Counted from the first letter of the stretch, positions 23,562-36,384 are shown. The stretch: DNA of 64,000 nt from Octopus sinensis (GCF_006345805.1 NC_043008.1:31558001-31622000); one strand, 5' to 3'. Numbers and translations: made by a program. The notes: generated by a model from the letters alone, not told the origin.

Positions 23562-23801
23562 ATTATTTACATTATTTACATTTGGCGGATATTTGTCCTC
23601 ACCTTGTTTGTTGTTAACACAACGTTTCGGCTGATGTAGCCCCCAGCCTTCATCAAGTGTCTTAAGTTCTCATTCCTACGGTAGTTTTCGATCTTATTAT
23701 TATTATTCAGGTCACTGCCTGGAATCGAACTCGGAATCTTGGGGTTAGTAGCCCGCGCCCTTAACCACTACGTCCTATGCCCACGGGCAAATGGCGTAGT
23801 G
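23562..23801 (-). mobile_element. tRNA-head + hammerhead ribozyme mini-retroelement (retrozyme/SM-alpha-like SINE)
   Basis: Minus strand: tRNA-like head 23782-23707 with B-box GAGTTCGATTCC, then (AAT)n, then the hammerhead GACAC-tTGATGA-AGGCTG...CAGCC-GAAACGTT-GTGTT (23661-23616), then tail tgtaaataatgtaaataat. An inverted copy of the 5' end lies at 23785-23801. Confidence 0.75.
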
Positions 23802-24211
23802 TGTGTGTGTGTGAGTGTATAAGTATGTATGTATGTATTTGTAATCCCCCCCCATTACCACCACCATTTTACAACCAATGTTGGTTTGTTTACATCACTG
23901 TTACTTAGCGGTTCTGGAAAAAAGATGGAGTAAGTACAGACTTTAGAAAATATGTATTGGTTTCGATTTGTTCAACTAAACCCATCAAGGCGGTGCCCCA
24001 GCATGGCCGCAGTCAAATAAAAAAAATGATAAAAAGGTAAAAGAAAACAAAATACTGGATAAAAAAGGAAGTTTTGCTTCCCGCCCATATGGTTCTGGGT
24101 TCAGTCCCACTGCGTGACTCCTAGGGAAATTGTCTTTTATTACAGTTTCTCGGGCTGGTCAAAGCCTTCTGAGTGTATCTGGTAAACGGAAGCTGAAAGA
24201 ACATATATATA

Positions 24212-35134: not shown

Positions 35135-36384
35135 TAAGTATCAAACTTTTTCTTTGTATTCTTTTATTGTTTTACTTGTTTCAGTCATCTGACTGCGGCC
35201 ATGCTGGAGCACCGCCTTTAGCCGAGCAAATCGACCCCAGGATTTATTCTTTGTAAGCCTTCTATTTATTCTATCGGTCTCTTTTGCCGAACCGCTAAGT
35301 TACGGGGACGTAAATACACCAGCATCAGTTGTCAAGCGATGTTGGAGGGACAAGCACAGACACAAACATACATGTATACGACGGTCTTCTTTCAGTTTCC
35401 GTCTACCAAATCCACTCACAAGGCTTTGGTCGGCCGAGGCTATATTAGAAGACACTTGTCCAAGGACTTATAAATAAAATATTTTAATTGAAAACTTTAT
35501 TTAACGTTTGACTTGTATAACTATACTTAAAAACTAAACACACACACATAAATATATACATACCGGCTTCTTTCAGTTTCCGTCTATCTATTCCACTCAT
35601 AAGGTGTTGGTCGGCCCTAGGCTATAGTGGAAGACGCTTGTCCAAGGTGCCATGCAATGGGACTGAGTCAGTTCCTGATGTATGTATATATATATATATA
35701 TATCAATTATATATTAACATGGCACCTGTGCAAGGATGACATGCAAATTCGTGAAACGTTCCATTTTTTTTTTCATAGGCACAGGTGTGGCTGTGTGGTA
35801 AGAATTCCCAACCATATGGTTCCGGGTTCAGTCCCACTGCGTGGAATCTTGGACAAGTGTCTTCTAATATAGCCTCAGACCAACCAAAGCCTTGTGAGTG
35901 GATTTGGTAGACGGGAACTTAAAGAAGCCCGTCGTATATATATATGTATGTATTTGTTATTTGTGTCTGTTTGTCCCCCACCACCACCACCATCGCTTGA
36001 CAACCGATGTTGGTGTGTTTACGTCCCCGGTATCTAGCGGTTCTGCAAAAAGAGACCGACAGAATAGTATTAGGCATAGAAAGAATAAGTCCTGGGGTCG
36101 ATTTAGTAGGAGTTAGGTATGCTATTTAAAACGGTTTGATTCGAGCCATGCAAGTGTCATAGGCTTGAAGCTTAGCTCGTTGTGCTTAGGTAACCGAATC
36201 GTCTACCTCAGCCCGACAAGCTAAGATTCAAGCAAACGAAACGTTAAGTTGCAAGGAGCTATATCAAACTGTTTTAAAGAATCACACATACACATGCGCG
36301 CGGGCGTGTGTTTAATCTTCATTTTTTACGTCCACTTTCATGAATCAGATGGAATTTATACATATATTGCAACACACATCCTGA

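Follow-up and report, generated by a model that had tools for sequence, protein, structure and literature searches.

What brought a tRNA-like sequence, a hammerhead ribozyme motif and a short tandem tail together in a single element of about 240 nt? The question is raised by positions 23562 to 23801 of a 64,000-nt stretch of the Octopus sinensis genome (GCF_006345805.1 NC_043008.1:31558001-31622000), which is referred to here as the window. The initial annotation placed a tRNA-like head, an (AAT)n stretch, a minimal hammerhead with a mutated core C and a tandem tail on the minus strand, next to an inverted stub of the head, and each of these parts is found where it was placed. It took them for a self-cleaving element transcribed by RNA polymerase III (Pol III), that is, a short interspersed element (SINE) or retrozyme mobilised by a Penelope-like reverse transcriptase (RT), possibly via circular RNA. 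The window element and the copies of its family were searched in the same 2.72-Gb genome. The results bear out a linked, dispersed repeat with a Penelope-derived tail and lend little genomic support to a retrozyme or circular route. The element is probably a decayed short non-coding retroelement that has the layout of the 3' untranslated region (UTR) of a Penelope-like element (PLE) and was likely copied by the RT/GIY-YIG endonuclease of that PLE from a predicted Pol III RNA.

The repeat family and its Penelope-like partner

The window element belongs to a dispersed family of roughly 10^4 copies. Comparison of the 240 nt with the genome gave 4010 first-look candidates, and the 40 that were scored yielded 55 matches, of which the full-length ones are 80-86% identical to the query. 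An internal 123-nt query taken from a less decayed copy gave 1587 candidates; the 40 scored are 96-100% identical, and young copies therefore exist. The order of head, linker, body, hammerhead and tail is constant in alignments of 39 and then 103 copies. These alignments, together with the loci found by the internal query, uphold the proposed linkage of the tRNA-like head with the hammerhead and speak against chance adjacency. The window element is beyond chance, because its 240 nt recur, its modules are linked elsewhere and the matches to the hammerhead descriptor described below are confined to the family. The only copy in 267 kb not selected for the family is the window's own.

Copy numbers were estimated from exact genomic occurrences of CpG-free 18-mers, for which reversed controls gave 0-1. 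There are 13,456 occurrences of an 18-mer of the 3' region, 5,447 of one in the head and 1,025 of one in the PLE UTR, 14-31 nt upstream of the head. Retention of these words in sampled spanning copies is about 0.5 for the 3' region, 0.46 for the head and 0.32 for the upstream UTR. The retention-corrected numbers are roughly 27,000, 12,000 and 3,000 copies, respectively, and they are rough because the samples of copies were small and non-random.

The partner PLE was found by reading upstream of copies with a 5' extension, some of which share the sequence before the head. The end of an open reading frame (ORF; ...GIADHVWKNGDHLPLWDEVKIID...ILDL*) lies upstream of the head at L065, L075 and L058, about 33 nt before head position 1. 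A 76-aa query from this ORF end gave 3671 candidates, and all 150 of the 150 scored are 81-100% identical to it. The unit begins about 33 nt after the ORF end and on the same strand at 19 of 20 fetched loci; at the twentieth, L082, the copy in question has no unit. The translations of longer copies (pieces of 300 aa and 551 aa) comprise an RT with YVDD and, after it, a GIY-YIG-like C-terminus, in which the GIY-YIG part is assigned by motif and position only. The 551-aa piece is 27% identical over 428 aa (E 4e-39) to the RVT_1 and GIY-YIG ORF of another PLE family in the same genome; reverse-transcriptase proteins from fish, cestodes, a cockroach and rotifers can be aligned with it as well. The whole unit, including its tRNA-like head, is the constant 3' UTR of a PLE family. 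The suspected Penelope link is thereby substantiated, by the join to the ORF as well as by the PLE footprint of the insertions, and the presence of the tRNA-like head inside the 3' UTR of the autonomous element had not been foreseen.

The 14 loci fetched for the PLE family are all 5'-truncated; the longest similarity extends over about 1.9 kb, with the 5' end and the upstream terminal repeat out of view. At the junction, 12 nt of the PLE UTR match the head in inverted orientation. A longer inverted copy of the head within the ORF end was rejected as a candidate, since beyond the first ~12 nt its alignment is no better than those of shuffles. A partner was also sought among the PLEs with Pfam GIY-YIG matches (5029 candidates, 20 loci fetched), and none of the fetched loci shares the tail or has a sense-strand hammerhead. 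Another PLE family, seen 3' of the ORFs at L046-L048 and L050 and at L035:2158-2320, has a 3' UTR of ~110-nt repeated units that contain TTGATGACGTC...GAAACGATTGGTCAAAA. Its ORFs match Pfam RVT_1 and GIY-YIG, and the ~110-nt units could not be fitted to a hammerhead. L104 and L106, on different contigs, are 99.5% identical over 2.8 kb including a PLE fragment and its unit; either the segment was duplicated recently in the genome or the assembly contains it twice.

A head-to-head inverted second copy is present at 15 of the 30 loci chosen only by the internal query, and there its 3' end is constant and its 5' end variable. The first sample had such pairs at 19 of 30 loci (18 of 29 distinct places), and it was biased because its query contained the inverted stub. 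A catalogue of 5' junctions holds 39 automatically classed rows (21 inverted, 3 PLE-UTR and 15 'other') and a further 17 unclassed rows; by eye, most of the 'other' rows also open with inverted pieces of the element. Most head-bearing copies have a palindromic junction with either a stub or a full partner, and complete arms meet at position 1 with a GT, AC or AT spacer. 5'-truncated, ORF-bearing PLE copies have an inverted partner too (L139, L140, L141 and L144). An optional 32-nt extension past the tail occurs in about 12 of 30 copies (by eye), and it is found inverted at the 5' junctions of L004, L006, L022 and L061. Exact flank repeats of 10-13 nt surround whole units, pairs included, in 12 of 58 cases, compared with 9 of 600 mismatched controls. 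Because these repeats enclose the pairs as a whole, the inverted pair is one insertion. Craig et al. 2021 (PMC8557442) describe PLE insertions as biased towards microsatellites, with a tail of 30-40 bp at one end and an inverted copy that is 5'-truncated; heavy 5' truncation of PLEs is known from the same source. The footprint of the family matches these features, and its insertions therefore carry PLE signatures.

At the 5' junctions of L060, L019, L064 and L076, the inverted partners have the first 8-10 nt of the head fused to the (AAT)n linker or the body, and the tRNA-like part is skipped. Template jumping past the structured head may account for the skipped part, or else an older form of the tail that had no head.

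Features of the window element, with positions counted from the first letter of the window
Feature	Position	Strand	Basis
Whole element, head to tail	23562-23782	minus	direct sequence reading
Inverted 17-nt stub of the head, GGGCAAATGGCGTAGTG, head-to-head with the main copy	23785-23801	plus	inverted repeat, 82% complementary
Inverted-repeat arms, 17 nt each, separated by 2 nt	23766-23782 and 23785-23801		82% complementary
2-nt spacer, centre of the head-to-head junction	23783-23784	.	direct sequence reading; GT, AC or AT in other copies
tRNA-derived head, 73 nt, gggcataggacgtagtggttaagggcgcgggctactaaccccaagattccgagttcgattccaggcagtgacc; position 1 is 23782	23710-23782	minus	direct reading
A-box-like site in the head	about 23765-23775	minus	direct reading
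B-box-like site in the head, GAGTTCGATTCC	about 23721-23732	minus	direct reading
(AAT)n microsatellite linker, length differing among copies	23693-23709	minus	direct reading and alignments
Body, from linker to hammerhead	23662-23692	minus	alignment of copies
Minimal type I hammerhead motif, Penelope type, 46 nt	23616-23661	minus	direct reading and alignment
3' region and tandem tail (UGUAAAUAA)n, constant 3' end of the family	23562-23615	minus	direct reading and alignments
Tail repeats, 9-nt unit ATTATTTAC in plus-strand reading, 2.3 units	23562-23582		

The window copy is a decayed, old and inactive member of the family, and its ribozyme motif is broken. It has no ORF and is without the 32-nt tail extension. 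Its body is without some 20 nt (ACCCAGGTTCGAAATTTCC-like) that the alignment places just upstream of the hammerhead motif in most copies. A (GT)10 stretch adjoins the inverted stub at 23799-23818, and (CA)28(AT)10 is located ~130 nt past the 3' end of the element. Just upstream of the element, at about 23985-24030 on the minus strand, ggccatgctggggcaccgccttgatgggtttagttgaac resembles a piece of another repeat. Elsewhere in the window, positions 35678-35770 on the plus strand match U6 spliceosomal RNA (53.2 bits against an Rfam gathering score of 44, E 1.5e-10).

The tRNA-derived head and the hammerhead motif

Rfam and ARAGORN were blank on both modules, and these were therefore assessed with purpose-made descriptors and shuffled controls, and by alignment to the real tRNAs of the genome. 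Positions 9-62 of the head of a young copy are colinear with tRNA genes of the same genome, with a score of 42; 200 shuffles score 22.6 +/- 3.5, with a maximum of 34. The comparison set comprised only 22 distinct tRNAs of 9 anticodon types, and the parent tRNA is not pinpointed by it. This alignment indicates that the head descends from a tRNA. With the tRNA covariance model, a first look at this genome yielded 619,536 candidates. The number suggests that tRNA-derived repeats are extremely numerous here, and the hammerhead-tailed family accounts for a small share of them.

The A and B boxes have a well-known consensus, which was used as such and was not tool-derived. The strict pattern for both boxes, TRGCNNAGTGG-N28-40-RGTTCGANNCC, is present in 16 of the 78 copies that have a head; 590 kb contain it 18 times and 2.95 Mb of shuffles not once. 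The A box of the window copy has 2 mismatches to this pattern. Of 29 full-length copies, 3 have TTTT on the sense strand and 27 have it on the antisense strand. The boxes, the T4-free sense strand and the sharp 5' end at position 1 suggest that the A and B boxes would drive Pol III from head position 1.

The hammerhead of the window copy reads gacac-TTGATGA-a-GGCTG-ggggctacat-CAGCC-GAAA-CGTT-gtgtt from 23661 down to 23616. Helix I is formed by GACAC/GUGUU and helix II by GGCUG/CAGCC, which is followed by GAAA, and an ACGU palindrome stands where helix III would be. There is an additional A between A9 and helix II. The core is UUGAUGA, with U in place of C3. The family majority is GACAC-CUGAUGA-A-GGCUG(G)-loop-(U)CAGCC-GAAA-CGUU-GUGUU. 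The expectation that CTGATGA would be restored in the family is thus borne out, and the exact majority 46-mer has 761 genomic occurrences compared with 0 for the reversed control.

The descriptor demanded CUGANGA, an optional bulge, GAAA, A15.1, pairing of 15.2 with 16.2, U16.1 and H17; helices I and II each had to be 4 bp or longer, with G10.1-C11.1 closing helix II. This descriptor is matched in full by 31 of 118 site-spanning copies, and 6 more deviate at C3 only. On both strands of the 590 kb of fetched loci, it has 34 matches, every one within this family. It has no match in 2.95 Mb of shuffles and none in the window, whose own copy has U3. According to Cervera and de la Pena 2014 (PMC4209133), minimal hammerheads are marked by an extra nucleotide after A9, a G10.1-C11.1 pair and a palindromic 15.2/16.2, and those of PLE terminal repeats have low, dimer-dependent activity. 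The PLE-type traits are present here, namely helices I and II, G10.1-C11.1, the extra nucleotide 9/10.1 and the palindromic 15.2/16.2.

At N7, the one free core position, most copies have T and at least 15 of 103 have A (by eye, alignment column 10), which seems to mark a subfamily. The U3 variant recurs among copies, including the one in the window. Variation at N7 and the recurring U3 imply that core integrity is not strictly kept. Cleavage is predicted after GUU (GUU|G), at least about 55 nt upstream of the 3' end of the element, so that the cut does not define the element ends.

Hammerhead-like motifs of a more canonical animal type were also seen at L045:7515-7559 (+) and around L034:2614-2685 (+). 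They have GAAAC-UCGA-GU, a palindromic loop 3, and the L045 motif has a GUC site. Both are located close to other PLE copies and have no relation to this family.

Origin of the short copies

Among 129 chained copies, 5' ends are concentrated at head position 1 and in the (AAT)n linker, and few copies reach into the ORF. The head word outnumbers the word located 14-31 nt upstream 5.3-fold, and the fall takes place over roughly 60 nt around position 1. This step in copy number points to a short template RNA that begins there, and Pol III would be the simplest source of such an RNA.

A short element of this kind could arise as follows. Pol III would transcribe a short RNA from head position 1 by means of the A and B boxes. 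The PLE enzyme would recognise the 3' region that this RNA shares with the PLE and would prime on the nicked target. Once the cDNA gets to the 5' end of that RNA, fold-back or a second priming on the other strand would build the inverted stub, which in the window is 17 nt long. The hammerhead would have come with the PLE tail as an inherited module; any cutting would be weak and would take a dimer, and the ends of the short element would not depend on it.

Several observations weigh against copying by a PLE enzyme from a separate Pol III RNA. With regard to the promoter, ARAGORN at default settings found no tRNA in the window, in 30 loci or in 37 heads; at an 80% threshold it accepted 8 of 37 heads, with poor cloverleaves. 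The Rfam tRNA model has no match in the window copy, the sampled loci or the young copy (E<=10). Since the head also sits inside the PLE 3' UTR, the 5' ends at position 1 could reflect a stop or processing site on PLE RNA and not a separate promoter. With regard to the ribozyme, the Rfam hammerhead models, which had been put forward as a check, failed to match the window copy (E<=10), 20 loci (E<=1) or the young copy (E<=10), and minimal hammerheads without helix III may, in our view, fall outside those models. Helix covariation is absent: in 83 distinct hammerhead rows 92.0% of helix cells are paired, compared with 91.5% in shuffles, of which 17 of 500 are as high. Only 4 cells are changed on both sides of a helix, and the variation looks like decay of copies and not like compensation. 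The fold of the 46-nt motif is marginal (minimum free energy (MFE) -12.6 kcal/mol, helices I and II alone -11.2 kcal/mol, z = -1.46), and the hammerhead is not formed in the MFE fold of the full-length element. With regard to the enzyme, Pfam has no match on the family's own decayed ORF pieces. No open frame longer than 551 aa was present among the 150 best ORF matches, and a current source of enzyme was not seen there. Other PLE families whose ORFs are long do not share the tail, and their 3' ends are unrelated to that of this family.

Two further adverse observations are what would be expected if there were no separate SINE and the short copies were heavily 5'-truncated PLE copies made from PLE mRNA. 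In 14 of 30 young anchors, the copy starts in the (AAT)n linker, without the head, and ORF-linked and short copies show no clear age difference, in a comparison that is confounded by the choice of samples. Position 1 and the linker would then be favoured places for the RT to stop or switch template, for example at the hairpin CCAUAAUUGCCC-AC-GGGCAUAUGG just upstream of the head. In favour of this, the unit forms the 3' UTR of the PLE itself, 5' ends are scattered over many positions, the heavy 5' truncation of PLEs is established (PMC8557442), and the 12-nt inverted match of the PLE UTR to the head lies right at the junction. However, simple truncation sits poorly with the roughly five-fold fall at position 1 (5,447 against 1,025 words, or roughly 12,000 against 3,000 after correction). 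The hairpin itself is short, with mismatches, and the enzyme would come to it only after it had copied the tRNA-like stretch, which is more structured. In addition, the head retains its A and B boxes, and its sense strand is T4-free. Truncation alone is therefore considered unlikely, and a short Pol III RNA copied by the PLE enzyme is preferred.

The two remaining explanations concern the hammerhead. In a strict retrozyme, a tandem transcript would be cut by paired hammerheads, ligated to a circular RNA and then reverse transcribed. The majority of the family does have the hammerhead motif, and animal retrozymes have been proposed as PLE derivatives (preprint 10.64898/2026.07.22.740005; PMC7761336). 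Tandem and inverted copies had both been anticipated in the initial annotation. Inverted copies proved common, and head-to-tail tandems are few: L146 has two near-full copies, L145 a partial tandem and an inverted copy, and L075 and L013 are the other cases. Dispersed or inverted copies dominate. The copies are mostly single or in inverted pairs (15 of 30 loci), in which the motifs lie on opposite strands; genomic copies end at the tail and not at the cut site; permutation around the cut site is absent; and helix III is just a 4-nt palindrome. This combination makes the retrozyme route improbable. An ordinary tRNA SINE dependent on a long interspersed element (LINE), with a tail that resembles a hammerhead by chance, has even less in its favour. 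A short tandem-repeat tail, here (TGTAAATAA)n, is characteristic of certain LINE/SINE pairs too. SINEs of octopus are generally assigned to tRNA-Core or tRNA-Deu (PMC8967140). In contrast, the direct continuity with the RT/GIY-YIG ORF at 19 of 20 loci already contradicts such an origin. The inverted-partner footprint also speaks against it, as does a motif that has every feature of the descriptor, which is without a match in 2.95 Mb of shuffles. A LINE-dependent origin can practically be discarded.

Relation to known systems and biological meaning

Three components of this system are known separately, namely the minimal hammerheads of PLEs (PMC4209133), the architecture of PLE insertions (PMC8557442) and the Pol III hammerhead SINE-like elements of schistosomes (PMC6765202). 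Short hammerhead elements as non-autonomous derivatives of PLEs have also been published already (PMC7761336; preprint 10.64898/2026.07.22.740005). Compared with the minimal hammerheads of PLE terminal repeats (PMC4209133), the motif here lies downstream of a tRNA-derived module and mostly in copies of 150-310 nt; there is no covariation within this one family, and activity here is predicted only. The insertion units of endonuclease-bearing PLEs (PMC8557442, where Evgen'ev and Arkhipova 2005 is cited on them) resemble the present ones in their strong 5' truncation, in an abutting inverted 5'-truncated copy, in partial tandems, in a tail extension of 30-40 bp and in having microsatellites at the insertion site or close to it. 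In contrast to them, most units here have no ORF and start at the fixed first base of a tRNA-like sequence.

The schistosome elements Sm-alpha and Sj-alpha (PMC6765202) are likewise short, abundant, non-coding repeats in which a Pol III-type promoter region is combined with a hammerhead. Sm-alpha consists largely of tandem repeats, and its ribozyme frees monomers from multimeric transcripts (PMC6765202). In contrast, the octopus family has a minimal, loop-less ribozyme of the PLE type, dispersed or inverted copies and a unit that it has in common with an autonomous PLE. The metazoan non-LTR (long terminal repeat) retrozymes (PMC7761336; preprint 10.64898/2026.07.22.740005) are also short non-coding hammerhead elements thought to borrow PLE enzymes. 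However, they are defined by tandem units and circular RNAs, and tandems are rare here. No tRNA-like head is reported for them in the accessible text of the preprint ('tRNA' occurs 0 times in it).

A parallel in layout is given by pairs of a LINE and a SINE that have the 3' tail in common (Ohshima and Okada, cited in PMC4824008), in which a Pol III promoter derived from a small RNA is placed on the 3' recognition end of the autonomous partner. Similarly, the non-autonomous Cassandra, Helenus and Ajax (PMC10886601) have a Pol III promoter fused to the terminal repeat of an LTR element. Unlike in both of these cases, the partner here is a PLE, and the autonomous element itself has the tRNA-like module in its 3' UTR.

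In the octopus literature, OR1 and OR2 are described as CORE-SINEs (PMC4824008, PMC4758252). Recent papers on octopus repeats do not mention a SINE of the present kind in their accessible parts (PMC13282606, with 0 occurrences of 'ribozyme'; PMC8967140). A full-text literature search, with Repbase and Dfam outside the comparison, found neither a dispersed tRNA-promoter SINE that spans a full PLE 3' UTR nor a hammerhead-bearing SINE in cephalopods. A 1994 paper on octopus SINEs reportedly dealt with OK, OR1 and OR2, and Lunse et al. 2017 is said to be a source on minimal type I hammerheads in PLE terminal repeats.

SINEs are defined by their dependence on LINEs. A PLE with a tRNA-type Pol III promoter in its ribozyme-bearing 3' end might have spawned a SINE of its own, which would be the first Penelope-dependent, non-LINE class of SINE; this wider proposal is put forward tentatively, at somewhat less than an even chance. 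Every copy, long or short, would then launch a subgenomic RNA that ends in the recognition tail of the element.

The short hammerhead partners of PLEs have so far been described as tandem retrozymes. If the proposal is true, a dispersed tRNA-promoter element that coincides with the 3' UTR of a PLE along its entire length would be a third kind of partnership. For the classification of octopus repeats, it would mean that copies of this family may be hidden among the tRNA SINEs listed as generic or unclassified. Its tens of thousands of copies would make the family a natural system for learning which 3' features PLE reverse transcriptases recognise, how inverted 5' partners originate and what role a minimal hammerhead has in a transcript that does not need to be cut.
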